Positions 29,235-53,268 of a DNA stretch of 64,000 nt are shown here, one piece after another. This DNA comes from Minisyncoccota bacterium. GTDB taxonomy: Bacteria; Patescibacteriota; Minisyncoccia; Phycocordibacterales; Phycocordibacteraceae. Every line of letters begins with the position of its first letter. Position 1 is the stretch's first letter. A model generated the notes under the pieces. It was not told where the DNA came from and ran no database searches. It saw only the letters and a program-made list of their open reading frames with translations. The translations under genes and the position numbers were made by a program. The stretch lies in the NCBI GenBank assembly GCA_035627595.1, contig DASPLK010000001.1, forward strand, positions 5,619 to 69,618, given 5' to 3'.

Positions 29235-29921
29235 CTACGCAGCAAGCTTCCTGACGAGCTCGTACACCTCCTCGTGTATATCTTCCGGCGCGCGCATGGA
29301 ATCCCCCTCCATGCATTCGATGAGGTGCCAGTGCTCCTCGCTTGCGGCAAGCGCGCGGGCGGATGCGTGGCTACGCTCGAGGTACCGCCTATCCTCTTCG
29401 ACTGTATCTCGATCGCCCGTAAGCGTGTGGTTCTTGACCGAACGCTTCTCCTGCAAAAGCCTAAGCGATATCTCGACCGGCACATCAAGATAGATGACTG
29501 CATCCGGTACCGGCACCCCGAGGACGCCGTGCTCCATCTCCTTAAGCCAAGACAGGAAGAGTATGCGGTCCTCCTCATCCTCTATCTTCCCTGCCTGATG
29601 GATCATGTTGGCGCTCGTGAAGCGGTCGGAGATAACGATCTTCCCTTCCAATAGCCACTGCCGTATCTGCGGCGACGCCTCCTGGCGGTCGAGTGCATAC
29701 GGGAGCGACGCAAGCTTTGGGTCGAGGTTCACGAAGTCGCCGTGTTCTCCGGCAAGGCACTCGGCAAGAAGTTTTCCGAAAAATTGGTCCTGGTATCGCG
29801 GGAAGTCTATCTTCTCGGATGCGATGCCTTCATTGCCAAGACGTTCTGCCAGCATCTTTGCCTGGGTTGCCTTCCCGGACCCGTCGTTCCCGTCGAGCAC
29901 GATGAATCGTCCGTTATGCAT
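29235..29921 (-). CDS. tmk: Thymidylate kinase; the ORF track extends to 29969
   Basis: P-loop FIVLDGNDGSGKATQ, DRQEASP and a lid region. Confidence 0.85.
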   Translation of the reverse strand: MHNGRFIVLDGNDGSGKATQAKMLAERLGNEGIASEKIDFPRYQDQFFGKLLAECLAGEHGDFVNLDPKLASLPYALDRQEASPQIRQWLLEGKIVISDRFTSANMIHQAGKIEDEEDRILFLSWLKEMEHGVLGVPVPDAVIYLDVPVEISLRLLQEKRSVKNHTLTGDRDTVEEDRRYLERSHASARALAASEEHWHLIECMEGDSMRAPEDIHEEVYELVRKLAA

Positions 29922-30399
29922 ATGTGCCGAGGATATTATCCGGATGCGACTTATTAAAGAGGCGCTCACTTCCCTCCATGAGATATACGCGCGCTATACC
30001 AGCATCTAATATTGCGCTCCAACAGGGTTCGCACGCCCACCAGTGTCCCCAGAGGTATAAATCAGCACCATCAACTGAATCCAACTTAGAAAGTGCGGCT
30101 CTGATAGCGCGCACTTCGCTATGGTTCTTAGGATGGCAGCCTTCGCAGAGCTCATACCCTTCCCCTGTCGGAACATTGCGCTTCACGCGCTCGCACTCCT
30201 GCTTCTTATGAAAATCGCTTCCATTTGCCCCCTCTCCGACAACAACACCATCAACGACAACTACCGATCCCGTCTTCACCGCATCATCCATAGAGTGTGC
30301 GAGCGCATAGTTTCGAGCCGCTGCCATGAATGGGTTCCCTTCCTCTACATAGAGGAAGCTGCGCCCTTCCGGCAGATAGGGGTATGAGATGGGTCCCAT
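29914..30399 (-). CDS. dCMP deaminase (ComEB/cytidine-deoxycytidylate deaminase family)
   Basis: Zinc motifs HSEVRAIRAA and ACEPCWSAI (the H-A-E ... PC..C deaminase signature). Confidence 0.8.
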   Translation of the reverse strand: MGPISYPYLPEGRSFLYVEEGNPFMAAARNYALAHSMDDAVKTGSVVVVDGVVVGEGANGSDFHKKQECERVKRNVPTGEGYELCEGCHPKNHSEVRAIRAALSKLDSVDGADLYLWGHWWACEPCWSAILDAGIARVYLMEGSERLFNKSHPDNILGTYA

Positions 30400-30459
30400 T
30401 GCTCACTAGTGTAGCGCATCTGAAGGTGTGTATAAGACCCCTTTTACCAGGCGCGTATA

Positions 30460-31305
30460 ATGGCTCTCATGGCCCGCTTCGACACCCTCTATCAGGAAAT
30501 GCTTCAGAAGATCCTTACCGAAGGCACCAGGGAGCTTTCAGAGCGCACTGGGCACGAGACTACCGCCATCCCCGGCCTCCACTTCTCCATTGATATTGAA
30601 AAGGAAGGCTTCCCGCTCCTTACCCTCCGAAAGATACCGATTCCAATGTTCGTCGCCGAGCAGATCTGGTTCATCGCAGGCCTTCGGAAGCCCGCGGATT
30701 TCTTGCGCGACTACACCAAAATCTGGGACGGGTTCACAAACCCTAACGACGTCGTCACGGTCGCGTATGGATACCGCTGGAGACGGCACTTCGGCCGTGA
30801 TCAGCTAAAACTCCTCATTGAGCTTTTGAAGAAGGAGCCGTCCTCCCGACACGGGGTCATCGTTACCTGGGATCCGGCAAGCGACGGTCTTTCACTCTTC
30901 AAGAAGAAGAACGTTCCCTGCCCCTACTCTTTCACTGTGAACATCATCGGCGGCCGGCTACACCTACACAACATCGTGCGTTCGAATGACATGTACCTCG
31001 GCTTCCCTGCAGATGTTGCCGGGTTCGCTCTCCTGCAGTGCATCCTCGCGCAGAAGCTCGGCGTCACGCCTGGTGTGTACTCGCATTCAATCTCCAACGC
31101 GCACCTATATGACAATCAGTATGACGCAGTAAAAGAACTGATCTCTCGCAAGGACGAGCACCCGGCGATACATCTCACGCTTCCTAAAAATGCGTACGAC
31201 CGTGCGGAGAAGAAGGATCGCACCTTGGTTGAAGAGATGGTTGCCGACATAACGAGCAAGTATTCCCCGCAGCCTGCAATTTCTGGCGTAAAGGTTATTC
31301 TGTAG
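30460..31305 (+). CDS. thyA: Thymidylate synthase ThyA; a TATAAT overlaps the first ATG, so the real start may be the ATG at 30469 (leaderless)
   Basis: FPLLTLRKIPIPMFVAEQIWFIAG, the catalytic Cys region PCPYSF and a DMYLGFP-type motif. Confidence 0.95.
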   Translation: MALMARFDTLYQEMLQKILTEGTRELSERTGHETTAIPGLHFSIDIEKEGFPLLTLRKIPIPMFVAEQIWFIAGLRKPADFLRDYTKIWDGFTNPNDVVTVAYGYRWRRHFGRDQLKLLIELLKKEPSSRHGVIVTWDPASDGLSLFKKKNVPCPYSFTVNIIGGRLHLHNIVRSNDMYLGFPADVAGFALLQCILAQKLGVTPGVYSHSISNAHLYDNQYDAVKELISRKDEHPAIHLTLPKNAYDRAEKKDRTLVEEMVADITSKYSPQPAISGVKVIL

Positions 31306-31307
31306 CT

Positions 31308-31940
31308 ATGGCAATCCTCACGAAGACCGACATCTTGGAACGCGTCGCATCCGGCGAACTAGCGTTCACGCCGAATCTAGACGCGTTCCAGCTCCAGAGC
31401 CACGCGGTGGACTTGCGGCTTGGATTTACCTTTCTCATGCCCAAAGCGTGGCGCTTGACCGACAACGGCCGCGAGGCGGTTGATATCGATCCACTGAAGG
31501 ATCACGGCCCAGAATACTTCGATATCATCGAACTTGAGCAGGGCCAGTATTTTGAACTCCTTCCAGGAGAATATGTGCTCGTTTCTTCACTTGAGTCCCT
31601 GAAAGTGCCAAATGACATCATGGCAGTGCTCTATCCCCGCTCCTCGATTAACCGCAAAGGTCTCTCGGTCGACCTCACGGGCATTATTGATTCAGGATAC
31701 GAAGGTCCCTTGACCCTCCCCGTCAGGAATAACACTCGCTCCACCGTCCGCATCCACCCGGGCGAGCGCTTCTGCCAGGTCGTGTTCGAAGAACTCACCG
31801 CTCCCATCGAAGATCCGCGCAAGAGTCGCTGGCATCAGAAAGATGTCGTCGAGAAGGGCCCGAAGGAGAAGTCGGTAGAAATGAAACTCGTCTTTGAGGG
31901 CGACATCCGCAAACTGAAGCAGGACCATCCTGCTTCCTGA
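31308..31940 (+). CDS. dcd: dCTP deaminase
   Basis: MAILTKTDILERVASGELAFTPNLDAFQLQSHAVDLRLG N-terminus typical of Dcd. dUTPase-like fold motifs. Confidence 0.8.
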   Translation: MAILTKTDILERVASGELAFTPNLDAFQLQSHAVDLRLGFTFLMPKAWRLTDNGREAVDIDPLKDHGPEYFDIIELEQGQYFELLPGEYVLVSSLESLKVPNDIMAVLYPRSSINRKGLSVDLTGIIDSGYEGPLTLPVRNNTRSTVRIHPGERFCQVVFEELTAPIEDPRKSRWHQKDVVEKGPKEKSVEMKLVFEGDIRKLKQDHPAS

Positions 31941-31945
31941 CACCC

Positions 31946-32386
31946 ATGGAGGAGCTTCAGAAACTCCTCGCCCCCTACCGTGCATTCATAACGTACACGC
32001 CGCTGCGCACCGAGGTTTATGCGCATGCGCTTTTTGATACGGATGGTGCGGTTATGTACCTTATAGAGCCGCGCGCTTCTCTTGATCCTAAGGAAGAGGC
32101 GCTTGCGGCTATGAAGACTGCGGGAGATCTACCCACTGCGATACTCGTGCCGGGACGCAGATTCGATGCTTCCGGCACGCGGCACGGCCAGGGCGGCGGC
32201 TGGTACGACCGGTTCCTTGCTCGGGTGCCGAGCGAGTGGCTGCGGGTAGGATTCTGCTTTGACGATCAGTTCTCCCTAGTCCCGCTTGTACGGAACGCGT
32301 GGGACCAGCCTGTGGACTACATATGCGTCATAGATCGGAAATCAGGAGGTATGAAGATATACGCCTCTGGTAGACTGGTCGCATGA
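31946..32386 (+). CDS. 5-formyltetrahydrofolate cyclo-ligase family protein (short)
   Basis: VPGRRFDASGTRHGQGGGWYDRFL matches the MTHFS G-x-G-x-G-YYDR motif. Confidence 0.6.
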   Translation: MEELQKLLAPYRAFITYTPLRTEVYAHALFDTDGAVMYLIEPRASLDPKEEALAAMKTAGDLPTAILVPGRRFDASGTRHGQGGGWYDRFLARVPSEWLRVGFCFDDQFSLVPLVRNAWDQPVDYICVIDRKSGGMKIYASGRLVA

Positions 32387-32904
32387 AGCCTCGCGTCTCA
32401 GCTATCGTCGCCATCGGCGACGATCTCGTAATCGGAAAAGGCAACGGGTTGCTCTGGCATATTCCAGACGACCTAAAGCGCTTCAAAGAGCTCACGCTCG
32501 GGCATCCGGTCGTGATGGGGCGCAAAACTTTTGATTCCATCCTCGCCATCCTCGGCAAGCCGTTGCCGGGGCGTACCAGTATCGTTATTACGCGCGACGC
32601 TGAGTGGTCGCATGACGGCGCGATCGTAGCCCATTCCCTACAGGAAGCACTCAAGAAAGCTAGCGCGCTTGATCAAGAGGAAGTGTTTGTGATTGGTGGC
32701 GGACAAATATATAAAGAAGCATTCGATCAGCTCGACCGCATCTATCTCACTCGCATCTTCGATGCTAAGGAAGGCGACACTTTCTTCCCTCCCTACGAGC
32801 ACGTATTCACTGAAAAGCTGTTTGAGGAGCAGCGCACGTGGAATGACATCACGTACTGCTGGATTGATCTCGACCGCCCTGCTGCCACGGAAGATCCTTC
32901 ATAA
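32383..32904 (+). CDS. folA: Dihydrofolate reductase
   Basis: SAIVAIGDDLVIGKGNGLLWHIPDDLKRFKELTLGHPVVMGRKTFDSI. Confidence 0.9.
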   Translation: MKPRVSAIVAIGDDLVIGKGNGLLWHIPDDLKRFKELTLGHPVVMGRKTFDSILAILGKPLPGRTSIVITRDAEWSHDGAIVAHSLQEALKKASALDQEEVFVIGGGQIYKEAFDQLDRIYLTRIFDAKEGDTFFPPYEHVFTEKLFEEQRTWNDITYCWIDLDRPAATEDPS

Positions 32905-33604
32905 AAGGCGCGAATATATCTTCCTCTACGGGGAATGTGAATGAGTTCCCTTCCGACCTCTTTCCGATCTGTGTAGTAGATACGTATGGCGCATTCTTGA
33001 TACGCACAAGCGGCGTGCCTTCATTCGCCTCACCCATGACTAACACCGCTGCGGCAGCTAATGAGTCTGGCAGGTTCGTCTGACTGCCGGAAGTCGCGGC
33101 GCCAGTTAGATCATGTCGCATACGGTTGTCATAGATAGGTTCGAACCCCGCCCAAGCGACCGCCATGCCAACAACACCGCGTCTAAGAAACACACTGCGG
33201 GAGTCTGTAAGGACGAGATAGAGGTGCTCTTTTTGGTACGTCTCCTTAAACCAGGTAAGGAGTCTGTCGGCGCTCCTTTGCGGATCCTCGGGCCAGAGCA
33301 CGTAGTAATCACCAAACGGGTCGATACCCGCGTTTGGTATGAGCGTGCCGTTTGTAATGGTATGCATTACAAACCCACCGGGAGTGTGTTCGCGAGCAAG
33401 ATAGGCACCCGCCTCCGCGGCGACAAGCGCATCAACATCAGTACCCTCTTTTAAGACACATCTCCCCTCGCCTATAGCGACTACCTTTGAGGAGATAACA
33501 ATGACGTCATGCTCTTCGAGAGTAAGCGAGGAAGCTTTGATCTTCGCGTATAGGTCGTCCTTTGGTGGGACGAGCGTATCAATATGTATGGGGGTAATTT
33601 CCAT
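32849..33604 (-). CDS. CofE-family (F420-0:gamma-glutamyl ligase-like) protein
   Basis: Block-by-block match to CofE: VIVISSKVVAIGEGR, NAGID, LVLTDSRSVFLRRGVVGMAVAWAG and DLTGAATSG...LVMGEANEGTP. It converges on folA with a 56-nt overlap. Confidence 0.65.
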   Translation of the reverse strand: MEITPIHIDTLVPPKDDLYAKIKASSLTLEEHDVIVISSKVVAIGEGRCVLKEGTDVDALVAAEAGAYLAREHTPGGFVMHTITNGTLIPNAGIDPFGDYYVLWPEDPQRSADRLLTWFKETYQKEHLYLVLTDSRSVFLRRGVVGMAVAWAGFEPIYDNRMRHDLTGAATSGSQTNLPDSLAAAAVLVMGEANEGTPLVRIKNAPYVSTTQIGKRSEGNSFTFPVEEDIFAPFMKDLPWQQGGRDQSSST

Positions 33605-40948: not shown

Positions 40949-41518
40949 CTAACGGTAGCTCGGATTCTCTTCAGGTACGCCCTGGGACGCGTTTGCGAGT
41001 CGTGCGAGCGCAAACAAGAGGGACGAGAGCCGGTTCGCGTATGCCCTCGACGGATCCGAAATCTTTCGAAGTCCCAACTCATGCACCCCGACCAAGCGGC
41101 GTTCGGAGCGACGGGAGAGCGTGCGTGCAACATCGAGCATCGCGGACAGTTCGGTGCCACCAGCGATCGAGAATGATACGACCGGTGGAATAGCCGTCTC
41201 GATGGTATTAACCAACGTCTCGACTTGGGTCACCTTCGTCTTTCTAACCTTCTTGGGCGCGCCGGCAACCTCTGCCTGGATGATGAAAAGGGTCTCTTGC
41301 ACGTCGTGAAGAATTACAGAGGTCTTGTGCGTCTTCTTCCCTACCGTGATCGTTGGATCGATGCCATCACGAGCGCGTATTTTGCAGAACCCCAAGAACG
41401 CATTCAATTCATCCAACGTGCCAAGGCACTCCGGTACTTCGGATGATTTAGAAATACGGCTCTGGTTACACCCGAAGGTCTTAGTGGTGCCGTTGTCGCC
41501 TTTGCCGGTATAGAGCAT
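40949..41518 (-). CDS. ATP:cob(I)alamin adenosyltransferase, PduO type
   Basis: MLYTGKGDNGTTKTFGCNQSRISKSSEVPECLGTLDELNAFLG N-terminus and the helical-bundle C-terminus typical of PF01923. Confidence 0.8.
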   Translation of the reverse strand: MLYTGKGDNGTTKTFGCNQSRISKSSEVPECLGTLDELNAFLGFCKIRARDGIDPTITVGKKTHKTSVILHDVQETLFIIQAEVAGAPKKVRKTKVTQVETLVNTIETAIPPVVSFSIAGGTELSAMLDVARTLSRRSERRLVGVHELGLRKISDPSRAYANRLSSLLFALARLANASQGVPEENPSYR

Positions 41519-48847: not shown

Positions 48848-49339
48848 GTGCTATCATCTACGCATATGCCGCGACCGCCGGTCTTTGAATGGCAAGGGAG
48901 AGAATATGTATTCGAAGAGAAGAGCGCCGACTGGTACTGGGCGCTCGGCATCATTGCTATCGCTGCGATCGTTGCGTGCGTTCTATTCAATAACATTCTC
49001 CTCGGACTCGTCATCGCGGCGGCGGCAGTCGCGGTCGCGCTTAACGCGGCCAAGCATTCGCGCATCCATCGTTTCCAAATCACCGACGACGGTATAGTTG
49101 TCGATCAGAACCTCTACCCTTACAGCAACATGCTGCATTTTTCAGTTCTCGAATATCCAGACCCCACCTGGCCCCCTGCCCTTTCTATTAAGACCAAGAG
49201 TTTTCTAGTACCACATCTCCTTATACCAATTGTTGGCCCTGACCCGGAGGATGTGTACGAGTACGTACTCAATCACCTCCCGGAAGGGCGTCATGACGAG
49301 TCGATCATCGACAGCATCATCGACATGCTCCGTCTCTAA
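48848..49339 (+). CDS. Hypothetical membrane protein (two TM helices near the N-terminus)
   Basis: WYWALGIIAIAAIVACVLFNNILLGLVIAAAAVAVAL, then a soluble ~100-aa region. Confidence 0.4.
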   Translation: MLSSTHMPRPPVFEWQGREYVFEEKSADWYWALGIIAIAAIVACVLFNNILLGLVIAAAAVAVALNAAKHSRIHRFQITDDGIVVDQNLYPYSNMLHFSVLEYPDPTWPPALSIKTKSFLVPHLLIPIVGPDPEDVYEYVLNHLPEGRHDESIIDSIIDMLRL

Positions 49340-49384: not shown

Positions 49385-49456
49385 GCTCTCGTCGTTCAAT
49401 GGATAGGACGCAACTTTGCGGAAGTTGTAATGTAGGTTCGATTCCTACCGAGAGCA
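49385..49456 (+). tRNA. tRNA-Arg with anticodon GCG (not the usual bacterial ACG); paralog of the tRNA at 50109
   Basis: GCTCTCGTCGTTCAATGGATAGGACGCAACTTTGCGGAAGTTGTAATGTAGGTTCGATTCCTACCGAGAGCA. Anticodon stem CAACT/AGTTG, loop TTGCGGA. Confidence 0.6.
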
Positions 49457-49469
49457 CTAGATATACATG

Positions 49470-49497
49470 AAAAGGGACGGCCGGGCCGTCCCTTTTC
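49470..49497. terminator. Bidirectional terminator (aaaagggacggccgggccgtcccttttc)
   Basis: Perfect hairpin between tRNA-Arg(GCG) and the convergent membrane-protein gene. Confidence 0.5.
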
Positions 49498-49498
49498 G

Positions 49499-50107
49499 TT
49501 AGCGGAGCACGTGCGCGATCCTTCGTGAGAGCACAGGGATTTCCAGCGTGTCGTTTCGCACCACCCACTTATACAGAGCTGGCGAAAGCGCGAGCGTGAA
49601 TACGACGGTGCCCAACAGATGCATGAGGGTGAACGGAATCTGGCCAATCACTGCAACCATCAATGACTGCCCGAAGAAGATCGGGCCGGTCATAAGTCCC
49701 GTCACCGCGTCATAGACGAGCGTTCCTACGATACCGAACGCGAGGAAGTTCTTCGTGGAGGCCTTCCTGTTCTGGAAGAAGAGGTGCGCGCCAGCACCCA
49801 AAGCGCCGTACATGAATCCGGTGACCACCGTCCACATACCAATACCAGAGGTCACGAGATCAAAGAGCGCGATGCCGAGGAAGCCAAAAAGGAAGGAGGT
49901 GAGGAAACCGAAGCGAGTCGCAAACGGCATCATAGTCGCAAGCATCGGCTCAAAGTTCGCCGGGCGCATGGGAAGAAGGCGGATAAGGAAGACCGCCGCG
50001 AAGCCGATAATGAGCTTGAGCCAGCCGGTTTTAATAGAGATGGTCTGCATAGGAATCCCATTGTAGCCGAGGAGAGCCCAAGGTCCAACCGTGGTATAAC
50101 TGCCCAA
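49499..50107 (-). CDS. ECF-transporter S-component-like membrane protein (6 TM); the start is possibly Met20 (50050)
   Basis: ~185-aa core with 6 hydrophobic helices and a loop, LIRLLPMRPANFEPMLATMMPFATRFG, of the kind seen in ECF substrate-capture proteins. Confidence 0.45.
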   Translation of the reverse strand: MGSYTTVGPWALLGYNGIPMQTISIKTGWLKLIIGFAAVFLIRLLPMRPANFEPMLATMMPFATRFGFLTSFLFGFLGIALFDLVTSGIGMWTVVTGFMYGALGAGAHLFFQNRKASTKNFLAFGIVGTLVYDAVTGLMTGPIFFGQSLMVAVIGQIPFTLMHLLGTVVFTLALSPALYKWVVRNDTLEIPVLSRRIAHVLR

Positions 50108-50108
50108 C

Positions 50109-50180
50109 GCTCTCGTCGTTCAATGGATAGGACATCTCCCTCCGAAGGAGGCAATGCAGGTTCGATTCCTGCCGGGAGCA
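50109..50180 (+). tRNA. tRNA-Arg (CCG)
   Basis: GCTCTCGTCGTTCAATGGATAGGACATCTCCCTCCGAAGGAGGCAATGCAGGTTCGATTCCTGCCGGGAGCA. The first 25 nt are identical to the tRNA at 49385. Confidence 0.75.
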
Positions 50181-50310
50181 CTAAACTTGTGTGCTTTCCA
50201 CTACTAGGTACAATAGCCCCAGGCTGTCTGCCGAGAGTAGTCTCGGATTCGCATTGAGCGAATAGGAAATGGGGTTCAATTCCCCTACTGTGCCGCAACG
50301 GTAATGCCCC

Positions 50311-50937
50311 TTGGGACGAGTCCGGTCATCAGACAGCCTATTATTCCCGAGCAGGAGCGTGCGCTTCAATATGGATTCCACAACTCTGCTCGTGCGGAGC
50401 TTTTTATTTATCTCTATGACCCGACGAACTCTTCTTCTCATCGCCCCTCTTCTGATCGTGCTCGTACTTATCGCTGCCTATGCACTTAAGCCACAAGCTG
50501 AAGCACCCGCGATACCAGAACAGGCGCAGGAAAATACTGAAGTGCCGGTAGAAGCTTCTGAGAATGAAGAGCCGGCGCCGGTTGAAGATCCGGTGTTCGC
50601 AGTCGCGAAGCGTGAAGCGGCAGCTGATATGTCAGCAGCACTTGCGCCAGCAACGGCGACAATGATTGTTGAGGGCATCTCTCATCCGGTCCGAGCGCCT
50701 GAAGGCGCGACGATCGAGGAAGCGATGGCAGGACTTAGGGCCGAGGGTGTGCTTACGTACAAGCTGCGCTCATACACGGGCCTCGGCTCCTTCGTCACGG
50801 AGATAAATGGAAAGTCCGACACGAACGAGTACTATTGGATCCTCCATATAAATGGCAAGAAGTCGGCAACCGGCATCTCGCAGACGCGCATTAGCTCTGG
50901 TGACGTTGTCGAATGGAAATATGAACATAAGTATTAG
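50311..50937 (+). CDS. Membrane-anchored DUF4430-domain protein (transcobalamin beta-domain-like)
   Basis: N-terminal TM helix and a Pro/Glu/Ala linker. The C-terminal domain ends ...NEYYWILHINGKKSATGISQTRISSGDVVEWKYE (the YW..NG...G.....L..GD.V.W motif of DUF4430). Confidence 0.55.
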   Translation: MGRVRSSDSLLFPSRSVRFNMDSTTLLVRSFLFISMTRRTLLLIAPLLIVLVLIAAYALKPQAEAPAIPEQAQENTEVPVEASENEEPAPVEDPVFAVAKREAAADMSAALAPATATMIVEGISHPVRAPEGATIEEAMAGLRAEGVLTYKLRSYTGLGSFVTEINGKSDTNEYYWILHINGKKSATGISQTRISSGDVVEWKYEHKY

Positions 50938-50941
50938 AGCT

Positions 50942-53230
50942 ATGCGCGTACCCGTTACCCTTCTTGTTACCCTTTCACTTTTAGTAAGTTCCCTGCCGCT
51001 TCACGCGCTTGCGGAAGATCTTCCGGTTGAGCCGGCACAAATCGTCGAGCCGACCGCCGTTCCTCAGGAACCCGCGCCTGAGGTGGCTATGCCGGTAGAA
51101 CCGGTACCCACCGCTCCGATTGAAGCACCGGTAGAGATCCCTGTTCCTGTAATCGAGGAGCCGATTGTTGTAATGCCGCAGATGCAGTTGATGACCGCTG
51201 CAGCAGAGCCACTTGAGACGGAGCCAGTGCATTTTGACCTGACCGGCTCTATCGAACTCTCCAACGGCTGCGTCATTACGGATGAGTCTGGTACAGAACA
51301 CGTCTTTCCTACTGCGACGACAACTGAATACCTGGCGGTGTGTGCGCTTGTTGAGGCAGTAGAGGAAGGAGTCATATCTGAAGTCTCCGTCACTGACGCG
51401 AGCTTCGGCCTCTATGTATCAAGCATCAATGGTGTTGCCGCGGGTGCTAATGAGTACTGGTCGCTCTGGGTTAACGGAGGGTACGGCAATTGCGGCATAA
51501 GCTGCCAGACGCTTTCCGCAGGCGACACTATTATCCTCATCCGTACGCACTCTGTCCCCGATGAAAGTGACCCGAACATATATGTAGAGACCCAGCTGGA
51601 TCGACTTGAAATTAATGTCGACGCGCTTGTCGAGACGTATGACAACATACTTGTTCCTGATAGCTGCTCAGTCATAGACACAGTCGGTGTAACTCACGAT
51701 TTCCCTGTTGTGAGCGATTTGCTTGGCGTGTGCGCACTTGTCGCCGCAACCGCAGAAAGCCACATCACTGGCTACGAGCTCAAGAACGAAACATTCGGTC
51801 TATATGTGACCAGCGTTAACGCTATTGCCGCGGGCACCAACGAATACTGGTCCCTTTGGATCAATGATGGGTACGCGAATTGCGGTGTTAGCTGCCAAAC
51901 ACTTTCTTTGGGTGACCGCATGGCGCTCATTCGTACGGCGTACGATCCAGTTACGTATGCTGAGACGCAGCTCGAGCGCGTTGAGTTCCGCGTTATCGGC
52001 TCAGTACATGTGGAAGCCAATGAAGAAGATCCAGGCACCGGAGGCACGGGCGGTAGCGGCGAAGAGAATGAGGATGGCGCATTTGATGTGGCACGAGCAT
52101 TCTCATACCTAGCAGGCCTACAAGAAGAGGATGGTTCTATCGAGAATGACCTTGTAACTGACTGGGCTGCAATTGCCTTCTCAGTTTCAGGAGCACCAGC
52201 TTCTGCCAAATCACTCCTAAAGCAGTACTTGAAGGAGGAAGAGACTGACCTTGATACACCTTCCGATTACATACGCCACGCGATGGCAATGCTCGCACTC
52301 AACCTGAATCCGTATTCGGCAGGTCCCGAGGACTACATCACTCCGGTCGTTGAATCGTTCGATGGTACACAGCTCGGAGAGGATCGGTACATCAACGACG
52401 ATGTGTTTGCGCTCTTTCCGCTTACGCACGCCGGGTACGATGAGGACGACGAAATCATCCAGAAGACTGTCGCATTCCTTATAAGCCAGCAGGGATCTAA
52501 CGGCTCATGGGAAGGTATCGACCTTACTGCAGCTGCCATTCAAGCGCTCGTACCGCTCTCCTCGCTTCCAGGCGTCCCCGACGCGCTTACGCGTGCGGAG
52601 GCATATCTCAGAGCTAGCCAGGAGAGCGATGGTGGGTTTGGCGATCCATTTGCCACCCCATGGGTCATCCAGGCCATAGAGGCACTTGGAGACTCCCCAG
52701 AATCCTGGGAAGTTAACGGCAATACGCCACTTAGCTATCTGGCATCGATTCAGAATGGAGATGGAAGCGTAACGACTGCCTCCGGCACGGTAAATGATGC
52801 CGCATGGGCTACTGCATACGCGATCGCAGCCGCTAAGGGCGACACTTGGCATGATCTTCTAGACGACGTGAATAGACAGGAGCCTACGGTAGGCGATGAT
52901 GACGATAATAGCGGCAGCAACTCCTCAGATGAGGAAGATTCTGAAGGCGAGGTGCTCGGCACGACGGATGAGATAACTCCCGAGCCACTTACCCCTTCGT
53001 TCACCTTCGAGACTCCTATAGAGGCGCCGGCGCGCACTGTAGCGAAGGCGGCTACTGCTCCCGTGCCAGCAACAGAGGAATCTCTTGTTGAGGAGGAAAC
53101 CGACAATGAGGTTGCTGCGCCTACGCAAACAGCAAGCACCGCAGACGCACCAGGCGGCTCTTGGCTCATGCAAACGCTCGGCTCCTTATGGAGCGGATTC
53201 GTAAACTTCTTGAAGAGCTTGTTCTCCTAA
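50942..53230 (+). CDS. Large surface protein: signal peptide, Pro-rich linker, 2x DUF4430, then an alpha/alpha-toroid (prenyltransferase-like QxxDGSW repeats); the ORF track starts at 50852
   Basis: Repeats end ...NEYWSLWVNGGYGNCGISCQTLSAGDTIILI and ...NEYWSLWINDGYANCGVSCQTLSLGDRMALI. The toroid motifs are ISQQGSNGSWEG, ASQESDGGFGDPF and ASIQNGDGSV. An acidic tract and a hydrophobic C-terminus follow. Confidence 0.6.
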   Translation: MRVPVTLLVTLSLLVSSLPLHALAEDLPVEPAQIVEPTAVPQEPAPEVAMPVEPVPTAPIEAPVEIPVPVIEEPIVVMPQMQLMTAAAEPLETEPVHFDLTGSIELSNGCVITDESGTEHVFPTATTTEYLAVCALVEAVEEGVISEVSVTDASFGLYVSSINGVAAGANEYWSLWVNGGYGNCGISCQTLSAGDTIILIRTHSVPDESDPNIYVETQLDRLEINVDALVETYDNILVPDSCSVIDTVGVTHDFPVVSDLLGVCALVAATAESHITGYELKNETFGLYVTSVNAIAAGTNEYWSLWINDGYANCGVSCQTLSLGDRMALIRTAYDPVTYAETQLERVEFRVIGSVHVEANEEDPGTGGTGGSGEENEDGAFDVARAFSYLAGLQEEDGSIENDLVTDWAAIAFSVSGAPASAKSLLKQYLKEEETDLDTPSDYIRHAMAMLALNLNPYSAGPEDYITPVVESFDGTQLGEDRYINDDVFALFPLTHAGYDEDDEIIQKTVAFLISQQGSNGSWEGIDLTAAAIQALVPLSSLPGVPDALTRAEAYLRASQESDGGFGDPFATPWVIQAIEALGDSPESWEVNGNTPLSYLASIQNGDGSVTTASGTVNDAAWATAYAIAAAKGDTWHDLLDDVNRQEPTVGDDDDNSGSNSSDEEDSEGEVLGTTDEITPEPLTPSFTFETPIEAPARTVAKAATAPVPATEESLVEEETDNEVAAPTQTASTADAPGGSWLMQTLGSLWSGFVNFLKSLFS

Positions 53231-53268
53231 ACGAAAAGCGGCCCGGATATCCGGGCCGCTTTTCGTTT
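53229..53268. terminator. Bidirectional terminator (aaacgaaaagcggcccggatatccgggccgcttttcgttt) between the surface-protein gene and rpsT
   Basis: Long perfect palindrome. Confidence 0.55.

Follow-up and report, generated by a model that had tools for sequence, protein, structure and literature searches.

The 64,000-nucleotide stretch of DNA analysed here (the window) stems from a tiny-genome (Paceibacteria/CPR) bacterium and carries a locus that is very probably a vitamin B12 (corrinoid) scavenging system. It consists of a gene for a candidate permease and, divergent from it, a two-gene operon for DUF4430-containing surface proteins (the cassette). The first-pass annotation of this DNA had proposed a locus for the capture of corrinoids outside the cell, comprising surface proteins that resemble transcobalamin and a permease similar to an ECF S-component. 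This core claim is supported by a riboswitch, by gene linkages in relatives and by profile matches to known beta domains, so that the corrinoid-uptake reading now rests on stronger evidence than was previously at hand.

The architecture of the surface proteins is already known. B12 scavenging was predicted in 2007 for bacterial surface proteins that combine an SLBB domain with a toroid and are accompanied by a second SLBB paralogue (Burroughs et al., 2007; PMC1796856); we count this prediction as a precedent. What appears to be new is the CPR setting and the transporter family.

A cobalamin riboswitch precedes the surface protein operon

Directly 5' of the small DUF4430 gene, we found a cobalamin riboswitch aptamer (50208-50351, plus strand) that was absent from the first-pass annotation. 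It covers the full Rfam model RF00174 (positions 1-189) with 29.0 bits, which is just below the gathering score of 31.5 and counts against our preferred reading; the corresponding E-value is 7.5e-5 when 2.8 kb are searched and 8e-6 for 301 nt. The closing helix P1 is formed by 50221-50230 pairing with 50330-50339. An nhmmer profile recovered homologous elements in 92 loci: 84 matches are positioned directly 5' of a small DUF4430 gene, one lies 5' of another DUF4430 protein, one is found in a duplicate copy of the window, and seven are located directly 5' of a permease homologue, in other species and loci that lack the cassette. Four relatives score at or above the Rfam gathering scores (L022, 52.9; L140, 50.4; L114, 42.1; L154, 34.8), and the Rfam B12-clan riboswitch scores in L062, L011 and L076 are about 43 bits. 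Compensatory changes occur in 25 of the 36 base pairs, and 92% of the cells of the alignment are paired, as compared to 80% in shuffled alignments (none of 500 shuffles reached 92%) and to 30-55% when the pairing partners were slid. The position of the riboswitch in front of the operon and of 47 of 51 related cassettes, together with its presence 5' of the permease homologue in seven other species, supports the corrinoid-capture reading.

The expression platform (50345-50415, plus strand) begins with a near-invariant 12-mer (TCCCGAGCAGGA, 50345-50356; conservation of at least 90% in 45 sequences) containing the Shine-Dalgarno-like motif AGGA, and in several relatives a start codon follows 2-4 nt past this AGGA. 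A terminator scan detected a terminator-like hairpin (50384-50399) with a U tract behind it, and in the MFE fold CCGAGCAG pairs with CUGCUCG to form an alternative structure. We infer the mode of control exerted by the platform: judged by the behaviour of this riboswitch class, plentiful intracellular cobalamin would be bound by the aptamer and would thereby lower the expression of both genes of the operon.

The class of the riboswitch also bears on the nature of the ligand. In Lactobacillus sakei, the transcobalamin-alpha/beta-like proteins Lsa1839 and Lsa1840 of an ECF-like operon are homologous to the pair described here, but haem uptake has been proposed for them (10.1101/864751), and the surface proteins might accordingly bind haem or yet another tetrapyrrole instead of corrinoids. 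We consider this highly improbable in view of a cobalamin-class element in front of almost all cassettes and of genomic partners that comprise an AdoCbl-dependent ribonucleotide reductase (RNR) and corrinoid adenosyltransferases; haem-related genes were not noticed in the neighbourhoods.

Architecture of the two surface proteins

The small protein (50416..50937, plus strand) consists of an N-terminal hydrophobic segment, an acidic and Pro-rich linker and one C-terminal, transcobalamin beta-like DUF4430 domain that scores 46.7 bits against Pfam (gathering score 23.8). It had been described as a membrane-anchored protein of 208 amino acids with a single DUF4430 domain; the domain stands, but the length does not, because an open reading frame starting at TTG 50311 overlaps the riboswitch and was therefore rejected. 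The start codon is either GTG 50359, ATG 50371 or ATG 50416, yielding proteins of 192, 188 or 173 amino acids, respectively. Since the hydrophobic segment ends in the residues AYA, it may be cleaved off as a signal and not serve as an anchor. A small DUF4430-type gene is found directly 5' of the large gene in 48 of 49 related loci.

The large gene (50942..53230, plus strand) encodes a surface protein of 762 amino acids. Its signal peptide (50942-51013) is followed by a Pro/Glu stalk, two DUF4430 domains with four Cys each (51236..51559 and 51632..52006), an alpha6/alpha6 toroid with QxxDGS(W/F)-type repeats (52088..52858), an acidic tail and a C-terminal hydrophobic helix, all encoded on the plus strand. 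These features agree with the secreted protein of about 760 residues, with stalk, two DUF4430 copies and toroid, that had been deduced from the sequence, as do the Pfam DUF4430 scores, which exceed the gathering score for both adjacent genes (57 bits in two stretches for the large protein; gathering score 23.8). In the AF2 model (pLDDT 91.6 for residues 95-654), the second DUF4430 stretch is beta-rich and the toroid is built from 12 helices. The 178 homologues of the large protein belong to the Paceibacteria/Patescibacteria wherever the source names an organism. The C-terminal helix of about 22 residues (WLMQTLGSLWSGFVNFLKSLFS; 53162..53227, plus strand) is aromatic and amphipathic, and is probably a membrane anchor or a sorting signal; nearly all family members inspected possess an equivalent C-terminus, while that of the L082 protein differs in having a classical TM segment and a basic tail.

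A family profile matches haptocorrin (4kki; E = 4.3e-4) and intrinsic factor (E = 1.3e-3), in both cases in the beta domain. These matches bear out the distant relationship of DUF4430 to the transcobalamin/intrinsic factor beta domain that had been stated in the first-pass annotation, and they lend further support to a role in corrinoid capture. The toroid, in turn, resembles the alpha domain of intrinsic factor and transcobalamin. Its Pfam matches are weak (SQHop_cyclase_C, 24.4 bits; Cobalamin_bind, E = 0.024); Cobalamin_bind is matched by 30 of 67 family members (E <= 0.01), and the Foldseek matches of the AF2 model fall into three groups. Both the sequence and the fold of the toroid resemble class II terpene cyclases no less than the B12 carriers, a likeness that counts against the scavenging reading. 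That the toroid is an enzyme (terpene cyclase/prenyltransferase-like) or a thioester (TED) domain, with DUF4430 having another binding role, is nevertheless barely credible, even though TED_complement is matched by 24 of the 67 family members. The protein possesses a single toroid of about 257 residues, whereas the matched class II terpene cyclases are larger (aligned over 223-247 of 334-725 residues); it is secreted and would therefore not meet isoprenoid diphosphates; only the last Asp of its DEDD sequence (residues 500-503) is conserved in the family; the toroid contains neither Cys nor a CGEQ motif; and a B12 riboswitch governs the operon.

The candidate corrinoid permease

The gene divergent from the operon (49499..50050, minus strand) encodes a six-helix membrane protein of 183 amino acids, a candidate corrinoid permease. 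Its open reading frame (49499-50107) extends to TTG 50107, with ATG 50050 being the most likely start codon. The resemblance to ECF S-components that had been noted for this protein was confirmed by its AF2 model (pLDDT 87.6): the best 19 Foldseek matches in the PDB are all S-components (FolT, RibU, ThiT, PanT), and ECF S-components are the only high-probability matches. The best Pfam match is the riboflavin S-component family ECF-ribofla_trS (24.5 bits, just short of the gathering score of 26.7). The further likeness to CbrT-like B12 importers was not recovered, since the family profile matched by sequence no solved PDB chain of any transporter; these chains presumably include CbrT and BtuM. 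All of the 518 close homologues are from Paceibacteria where they are named, and among 1.84 billion proteins no more than 236 cluster representatives were counted. The permease is a member of a small family of Paceibacteria that is related to Pfam DUF6580; an iterative HMM seeded with a DUF6580 protein recovers this family entirely. The permease gene of the window has no riboswitch of its own, which speaks against our interpretation of the locus.

Gene linkage in relatives

Linkage was counted with the permease as anchor, in loci of 80 GTDB species. Thirty of them contain at least one of the following: the cassette (16 loci), a class II RNR gene (9), an adenosyltransferase gene (9) or the riboswitch (22). 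Permease and cassette form tightly spaced same-strand arrays in at least eight species. In L022, genes for the small DUF4430 protein, the large protein and the permease are followed directly, on one strand, by a PduO-type gene; other gene orders are S (permease), NrdJ, CobA, riboswitch, DUF4430 (L076), S, NrdJ, DUF4430, toroid (L082) and NrdJ, AdoT, DUF6580, small, large (L171). The corrinoid-capture reading is supported by this repeated proximity of the permease homologue to genes for AdoCbl-dependent RNR or corrinoid adenosyltransferase. Two observations weigh against it: the permease is found within 2.5 kb of the cassette in only 8 of the 27 cassettes with adequate flanks, and the commonest neighbour of the cassettes is an F420-ligase-like gene.

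In about 40 of the 80 species, the permease gene is embedded in a backbone of conserved housekeeping genes (for M29 peptidase, His_Phos_1 and carbamoyltransferase), and the best NCBIfam match of the His_Phos_1 neighbour is the alpha-ribazole phosphatase CobC (67 bits, far under the cut-off of 163). Along with the infrequent proximity to the cassette and the best Pfam match to a riboflavin family, this would fit surface proteins that bind corrinoids next to an S-component-like protein that is no partner and carries something else, for instance alpha-ribazole or DMB (corrinoid precursor/lower ligand), cobinamide or an unrelated vitamin. Alpha-ribazole or DMB is the cargo proposed for CblT. We regard such a division of labour as unlikely: the B12-clan riboswitches of the seven cassette-less species are located directly 5' of the permease gene itself, AdoCbl-dependent RNR and adenosyltransferase genes adjoin the permease in nine species each, the same-strand arrays join it to the cassette, and no neighbourhood shows the nucleotide-loop assembly genes without which alpha-ribazole, DMB or cobinamide would be of no use.

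The surface proteins might also bind corrinoids without supplying them to the adjacent transporter, be it as an extracellular reservoir, to withhold B12 from competitors, or to dock an episymbiont onto a B12-displaying host. The long stalk and the multiple binding domains fit display rather than hand-over, most cassettes have no adjacent permease, and a BtuJ1 preprint reportedly describes extracellular B12 reservoirs in Bacteroides that would serve as a precedent. Acquisition genes are, however, typically marked by riboswitch control, here presumably repression by cellular B12, and linkage of the cassette to permease, NrdJ and adenosyltransferase genes recurs in several arrangements, which makes these variants quite improbable.

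Adenosyltransferase and proposed route of corrinoid uptake

As had been noted previously, a PduO-type ATP:cob(I)alamin adenosyltransferase is encoded 9 kb away from the locus (40949..41518, minus strand; TIGR00636, 128 bits, cut-off 108). By non-exhaustive inspection, no cob/cbi genes were recognised among the open reading frames of the window, in keeping with the earlier statement that it holds no cobalamin biosynthesis gene. The window and the 10 kb to either side of it yielded neither a B12-dependent enzyme nor an ECF energising module, and an ECF A/A'/T module was not present near the permease homologue in any of the 80 species; the missing enzyme and the missing module near the homologues both count against corrinoid uptake. 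The ABC ATPases near the permease homologues are LolD/MacB/DrrA-like.

The data show the folds of the domains, the riboswitch with its conservation and the gene linkages; from them, we infer how ligand binding, hand-over between proteins, transport and energy coupling might proceed in a corrinoid scavenging system. The 762-amino-acid protein would be held off the cell by its Pro/Glu stalk, with the C-terminal hydrophobic helix probably tethering it, and together with the small DUF4430 protein it would bind corrinoids extracellularly and pass them on. The membrane protein with the S-component fold would then move the corrinoid across the membrane, either energised by a shared ECF module encoded elsewhere or acting alone like BtuM, which is reported to work by itself. 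Inside the cell, the adenosyltransferase would convert the imported corrinoid to AdoCbl, whose likely consumer is the class II RNR seen beside the homologous transporter in relatives, though not in the window.

tRNA-Arg genes

ARAGORN detected a tRNA-Arg gene with the anticodon GCG (49385..49457, plus strand; Rfam tRNA, 61.4 bits) and another with the anticodon CCG (50109..50181, plus strand), the latter positioned between the permease gene and the riboswitch. The pair had been thought to enclose the whole locus and to represent an integration or recombination hotspot. It flanks the membrane protein gene only, and does so in conserved synteny, and we have therefore rejected it as a marker of integration: the order tRNA-S-tRNA is also present in the relatives L002, L004, L008, L009 and L091. 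A three-way alignment of the CCG gene with the other two tRNA-Arg genes of the window has a mean column identity of 82%.

Organization of the Locus

The two plus-strand DUF4430 genes (hereafter the cassette), the RNA element preceding them and the divergently transcribed membrane-protein gene probably constitute a B12-regulated corrinoid acquisition locus, and our data support the extracellular corrinoid-capture interpretation put forward in the first-pass annotation. The G+C content of the window is 54.8%, and the nearest relatives of its proteins are found in Candidatus Paceibacterota, in Parcubacteria and Kaiserbacteria MAGs. Read along the forward strand, the locus comprises a tRNA-Arg(gcg) gene (49385-49457), the membrane-protein gene (49499-50050, minus strand, with an open reading frame that reaches 50107), a tRNA-Arg(ccg) gene (50109-50181), a predicted cobalamin riboswitch (50208-50351, plus strand) situated between this tRNA gene and the small DUF4430 gene, the small gene itself (plus strand, ending at 50937) and the large gene (50942-53230, plus strand), which encodes 762 amino acids. 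The gene for a PduO-type adenosyltransferase was confirmed at 40949-41518.

While the original description of the locus is accurate, it needs correction with respect to the riboswitch, the start of an open reading frame and the tRNA pair. The small gene had been given as a 208-aa open reading frame; its DUF4430 content stands, but the frame of this length, from TTG 50311, overlaps the riboswitch RNA, so that the true start must be GTG 50359, ATG 50371 or ATG 50416. The tRNA-Arg genes had been thought to bracket the whole locus and to mark an integration or recombination hotspot. The pair encloses the membrane-protein gene alone, and the order tRNA-Arg(gcg), permease, tRNA-Arg(ccg) is kept in five loci of relatives (L002, L004, L008, L009, L091) whose permeases show roughly 72-81% identity where measured. 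Since the arrangement is common to relatives, it marks no integration event, and this explanation of the tRNA pair was discarded.

A Predicted Cobalamin Riboswitch Precedes the Cassette

The riboswitch is missing from the first-pass annotation, and a scan of the whole window at the Rfam gathering threshold returned tRNAs only. When the intergenic region was scanned with Rfam in E-value mode, a full-length match to RF00174 was detected at 50208-50351 on the plus strand (29.0 bits, the gathering score being 31.5; E = 7.5e-5 in a 2.8-kb search). Riboswitches in relatives were called with an nhmmer profile complemented by Rfam spot checks. When either the window copy or a profile built from 45 copies served as the nhmmer query, the element was located in 92 of the fetched loci, and 84 nhmmer matches lie directly upstream of, and on the same strand as, the small DUF4430 gene. 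Four copies reach or exceed their Rfam gathering scores, namely those of the relatives L022 (AdoCbl, 52.9/50), L140 (AdoCbl, 50.4/50), L114 (AdoCbl-II, 42.1/36.5) and L154 (Cobalamin, 34.8/31.5). In seven species that lack the cassette, the riboswitch is found directly upstream of the membrane-protein gene; the permease-linked copies of the relatives L062 and L011 score about 43 bits with Rfam.

For an assessment of covariation, we used an alignment of 45 sequences, took the structure from the window copy and counted 36 pairs. In this alignment 92% of the cells are paired, as compared to 80% in shuffled alignments (none of 500 reached the observed value) and 30-55% when the partners were slid, and 25 of the 36 pairs show compensatory changes. 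The element is hence no chance match, and its secondary structure is conserved and backed by covariation. It shares with the cobalamin riboswitches of Rfam clan CL00101 (RF00174, RF01482, RF01689) the core motifs GGAA, GGU, AUUCC, ACUGUGCCGCAACGGUAA and AGUCCGG, the closing helix, the placement 5' of B12 acquisition genes and the covariation. It departs from them in that the window copy falls slightly below the gathering score, and in that all copies studied here carry, next to the start codon, a 3' 12-mer, UCCCGAGCAGGA, that is unusual and nearly invariant. In the window this stretch reads TCCCGAGCAGGA (50345-50356) and follows the aptamer; its direct contact with the start codon is seen in several relatives.

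Two forms of the cassette riboswitch, both of which retain this 3' 12-mer, can be discerned in the alignment of 45 copies (drawn from the loci of relatives, L001-L172). The longer form, to which the window copy belongs, is enlarged by two hairpins between P1 and the GGAA core and corresponds to RF00174; the shorter form lacks these two hairpins and corresponds to the Rfam families AdoCbl (RF01482) or AdoCbl-II (RF01689). Between the riboswitch and ATG 50416, we found a terminator-like hairpin, CTCTGCTCGTGCGGAG, followed by a U tract (50384-50409), whose 5' arm has the invariant CCGAGCAG of the 12-mer as an alternative pairing partner. Together, this hairpin and the 12-mer pairing may serve as an attenuation platform, and control may be exerted either on translation or by termination; if GTG 50359 or ATG 50371 is the start codon, the hairpin falls inside the coding region.

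Predicted Surface Proteins with DUF4430 Domains and a Toroid

In agreement with the first-pass annotation, both plus-strand proteins exceed the gathering score of PF14478 (DUF4430; 23.8 bits), the small protein with 46.2-46.7 bits and the large one with 57.3-57.5 bits in two stretches. A kinship between DUF4430 and the beta domain of transcobalamin-type proteins had been proposed. It is borne out by a search of PDB sequences, in which the DUF4430 part of the family profile matches haptocorrin (4kki) in its beta domain at residues 348-431 (E 4.3e-4) and also the beta domain of intrinsic factor (3kq4 and 2pmv; E 1.3e-3). The full large protein used as a query yielded only 10 homologues, as its low-complexity stalk probably saturated the word index, while 178 relatives were recovered once the globular parts were aligned and used for the search; all of those with a source name derive from Paceibacteria or Patescibacteria. 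In an AlphaFold model of residues 95-654 (87 sequences; mean pLDDT 91.6), two domains are rich in beta structure, a Gly-rich linker is disordered and the toroid is made up of 12 helices. Each DUF4430 domain of the large protein contains four Cys residues, a feature that suits an extracellular location.

At the extreme C-terminus of the large protein resides a conserved aromatic, amphipathic helix of about 20 amino acids (e.g., WLMQTLGSLWSGFVNFLKSLFS and FWNRVRDILSSFFSFFTNLLY), which in the window is encoded by the last 22 codons (53162-53227). It is kept in nearly all relatives (L001-L058), while one relative, L082, has a classical transmembrane segment followed by a basic tail instead. The helix probably serves as an anchor; it may hold the protein to the membrane in a lineage-specific manner, act as a sorting signal or serve as a docking helix for a partner.

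The toroid with QW-type repeats that the first reading had recognized is confirmed both in fold and in repeats: it is an alpha/alpha fold as in class II terpene cyclases and prenyltransferases, and the toroid part of the family profile retrieves terpene cyclases from the PDB sequences (E 1e-7). The window copy gives weak Pfam matches to SQHop_cyclase_C and Cobalamin_bind; among 67 family members, DUF4430 was detected in 55, SQHop_cyclase_C in 59 and Cobalamin_bind in 30. Might the toroid be a class II terpene cyclase enzyme, as its fold and profile matches would allow? We rejected this assignment because the DEDD sequence at residues 500-503 is unconserved in the family except for its last Asp, leaving no family-conserved DxDD motif, and because the protein has one toroid only (about 257 residues) and carries a signal peptide. 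An alpha-2-macroglobulin/complement thioester domain has the fold alone in common with the toroid, whose sequence contains neither Cys nor a C[GA]EQ motif, and this candidate was likewise dismissed.

The comparison with the eukaryotic carriers transcobalamin, intrinsic factor and haptocorrin, which are described by PF01122, leads to a more differentiated picture. This model is matched at E <= 0.01 by 30 of the 67 relatives, and the toroid is hence related to that of the carriers; the window protein itself attains 14.1 bits (E 0.024; gathering score 25). Given this score below the gathering value and its beta-beta-alpha order, the large protein is no member of PF01122. The carriers are arranged alpha-beta and are soluble in plasma or stomach, whereas the window protein has a duplicated beta unit and is probably tethered to the cell.

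The Divergent Membrane Protein Has the Predicted Fold of an ECF S-Component

The 183-aa membrane protein scores near the threshold of the Pfam model ECF-ribofla_trS (24.5 bits versus a gathering score of 26.7) and 16.6 bits against the NCBIfam riboflavin S-component (cut-off 99), while some of its homologues pass ECF-ribofla_trS (e.g., the relative L062 with 33.8 bits). In the AlphaFold (AF2) model (pLDDT 87.6), it is predicted to adopt the six-helix S-component fold, in keeping with the S-component look noted at first reading: the first 19 Foldseek matches are without exception S-components (probability 1.00, or 0.99 in a single case; TM-score 0.41-0.73), and the matches at high probability are exclusively ECF S-components (FolT, RibU, ThiT, PanT), with BioY lower at 0.96. 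A likeness to CbrT-type importers, which had also been suggested, is not apparent at the sequence level: neither the profile of the permease family nor a DUF6580-type member retrieved any transporter at E <= 10 from the PDB chain sequences, which we take to include CbrT and BtuM. Both proteins are also absent from the top 50 Foldseek fold matches. We consider the membrane protein likely to be the importer of the locus.

We found 518 close homologues of the permease. A full HMMER scan recovered only 236 family members among 1.84 billion cluster representatives, indicating that the family is small and lineage-restricted; it is apparently confined to Paceibacteria. The whole family is recovered by an iterative HMM seeded with a Pfam DUF6580 protein encoded beside a cassette. 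One homologue with 51% identity to the window permease resides in an array with class II RNR and PduO genes on contig JACPBX010000008.1 (L066), which is labelled Candidatus Woesearchaeota archaeon and was placed in a DPANN bin; either a Paceibacteria contig was mis-binned here or the array was transferred between ultra-small lineages.

Gene Neighborhoods in Relatives

In a set of 80 GTDB species loci anchored on the permease, the cassette is present within 4 kb in 16 species, a gene for an AdoCbl-dependent class II ribonucleotide reductase within 3 kb in nine (the closest NCBIfam model, RTPR, gives 309 bits versus a cut-off of 340), a PduO- or CobA-type adenosyltransferase gene within 3 kb in nine and the riboswitch within 4 kb in 22. 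At least one of these four elements accompanies the permease in 30 of the 80 species. The arrangement differs from relative to relative: riboswitch, small, large, S and PduO in L022; S, NrdJ, CobA, riboswitch and DUF4430 in L076; S, NrdJ, DUF4430 and toroid in L082; NrdJ, adenosyltransferase, DUF6580, small and large in L171. This variation in gene order among lineages argues against simple inherited synteny.

A second set, anchored on the large protein, contains 73 unique metagenome loci. In 48 of 49 loci the large gene has the small DUF4430 gene in front of it, and in 47 of 51 the riboswitch lies 5' of the small gene. Of the 27 loci with adequate flanks, eight encode the membrane protein within 2.5 kb of the cassette. 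Since the permease is near the cassette in some loci and not in others, the two are linked but separable.

ECF Modules and B12-Dependent Enzymes

Inspection of the open reading frames of the 64-kb window revealed no ECF A/A'/T module, and Pfam-annotated gene tables contain no ECF genes in the 10 kb past each window end. A motif scan confined to ABC ATPases detected no ECF ATPases in the 10-kb permease flanks of the 80 species; the ABC ATPases present near the permease in 18 loci are LolD/MacB/FtsE/DrrA-like and were therefore rejected as ECF ATPases. B12-dependent enzymes are likewise absent from the window and the 10 kb on either side, with neither NrdJ nor MetH found past the window ends, and B12 use in this genome is predicted from PduO and the riboswitch. 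A deoxynucleotide-metabolism cluster (29235-32904; named by eye from the translations) encodes thymidylate kinase, dCMP deaminase, thymidylate synthase, dCTP deaminase and DHFR. No ribonucleotide reductase gene is located near it, so that the RNR of this genome must be encoded elsewhere.

Relation to Known Systems

Systems of this kind are already known as predictions, and the general idea has been put forward before. In bacteria, an alpha/alpha toroid with a transcobalamin-like SLBB domain fused to it N- or C-terminally has been described, with a second SLBB paralogue in the same operon, CbiO/CbiQ-type ATPase and T components in the SLBB operons of Firmicutes and a predicted role in B12 scavenging (Burroughs, Balaji, Iyer, Aravind, 2007; PMC1796856). 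The window locus resembles the Bacillus example of that study in its signal peptide, its DUF4430/SLBB domain and the toroid C-terminal to it, and the systems at large in the second paralogous SLBB protein, the predicted extracellular corrinoid capture and a host in which no B12 biosynthesis genes were seen (PMC1796856). It differs from them in its Paceibacteria (CPR) host, in the link to a riboswitch shown here and in having a solitary S-component-like protein as partner, with no CbiO/CbiQ-type module nearby. In the ECF-like operon Lsa1836-1840 of Lactobacillus sakei, separate secreted transcobalamin alpha-like and beta-like proteins are encoded together with ECF A and T components, and haem is the proposed substrate (10.1101/864751). 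Extracellular transcobalamin-like alpha and beta modules thus stand beside an S-component-type transporter in both cases; in the window locus, however, alpha and beta form one protein, an A/T module is lacking nearby and a cobalamin riboswitch is the predicted control element.

New here are the CPR host, the explicit prediction of cobalamin-riboswitch control, the stalked tandem-beta-plus-toroid architecture and a family of S-component-like permeases, uncharacterised to date, whose examined surroundings contain no ECF module. Literature searches on B12 acquisition in CPR bacteria, Patescibacteria and Parcubacteria (cobalamin or ECF) and on DUF6580 returned no relevant paper. ECF-CbrT is reportedly an S-component-type B12 transporter of Lactobacillus delbrueckii, and BtuM of Thiobacillus denitrificans is said to be a solitary one with no ECF module encoded nearby. 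Like these, the window permease is a small membrane protein with the predicted S-component fold of six helices and is genomically tied to B12 use, and as with BtuM no ECF module was seen nearby; unlike them, it belongs to a small, DUF6580-related family seen apparently in Paceibacteria alone, and its transport activity is a prediction.

It is conceivable, though we hold this only tentatively, that the locus represents a lineage-specific B12 pathway of Paceibacteria, in which a riboswitch-controlled, stalked beta-domain and toroid apparatus would feed a DUF6580-related S-component-like permease operating without an ECF ATPase module. The permease would then join CbrT and BtuM as a third, independent family of S-component-type B12 importers, the Candidate Phyla Radiation would have its first defined B12 route, and this route could draw cobamides from host or neighbor cells for AdoCbl-dependent ribonucleotide reductase. 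CPR bacteria have minimal genomes from which most cofactor biosynthesis is absent; despite this, some of the Paceibacteria loci examined encode the AdoCbl-dependent reductase. The locus offers a testable pathway consisting of a sensor RNA, two predicted surface binders, a candidate permease and an adenosyltransferase. Its predicted riboswitch control lends independent genomic support to the 2007 computational prediction of DUF4430-plus-toroid B12 binders, and DUF6580-related membrane proteins gain a candidate function.

Other Genes Recurring at These Loci

The commonest other neighbor of the cassette is a convergent gene resembling F420-0:gamma-glutamyl ligase (PF01996), found in 43 loci (L092, L162, L152 and 40 others). 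A gene for a Vut_1 'vitamin uptake transporter' often comes next (18 loci), and a DHFR gene is nearby in five loci; in the window, the ligase-like gene (32849-33604, minus strand) and the DHFR gene (32383-32904, plus strand) lie 17 kb from the cassette. No use of F420 is known for the organisms concerned. In 32 of the 80 species (e.g., those of L020, L026, L033 and L036), a His_Phos_1 phosphatase is encoded upstream of the permease homologue, directly adjacent in many, within a backbone of M29 peptidase, His_Phos_1, S and aspartate/ornithine carbamoyltransferase. Its best NCBIfam match is the alpha-ribazole phosphatase CobC (67 bits, far under the cut-off of 163), and a B12-related role is possible. 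Just upstream of tRNA-Arg(gcg), the window encodes a 163-aa membrane protein (48848-49339, plus strand) that matches no Pfam model and contains one or more hydrophobic segments; homologues of it are encoded a few genes from the cassette or the permease in six other loci (e.g., L116, 5779-6252).
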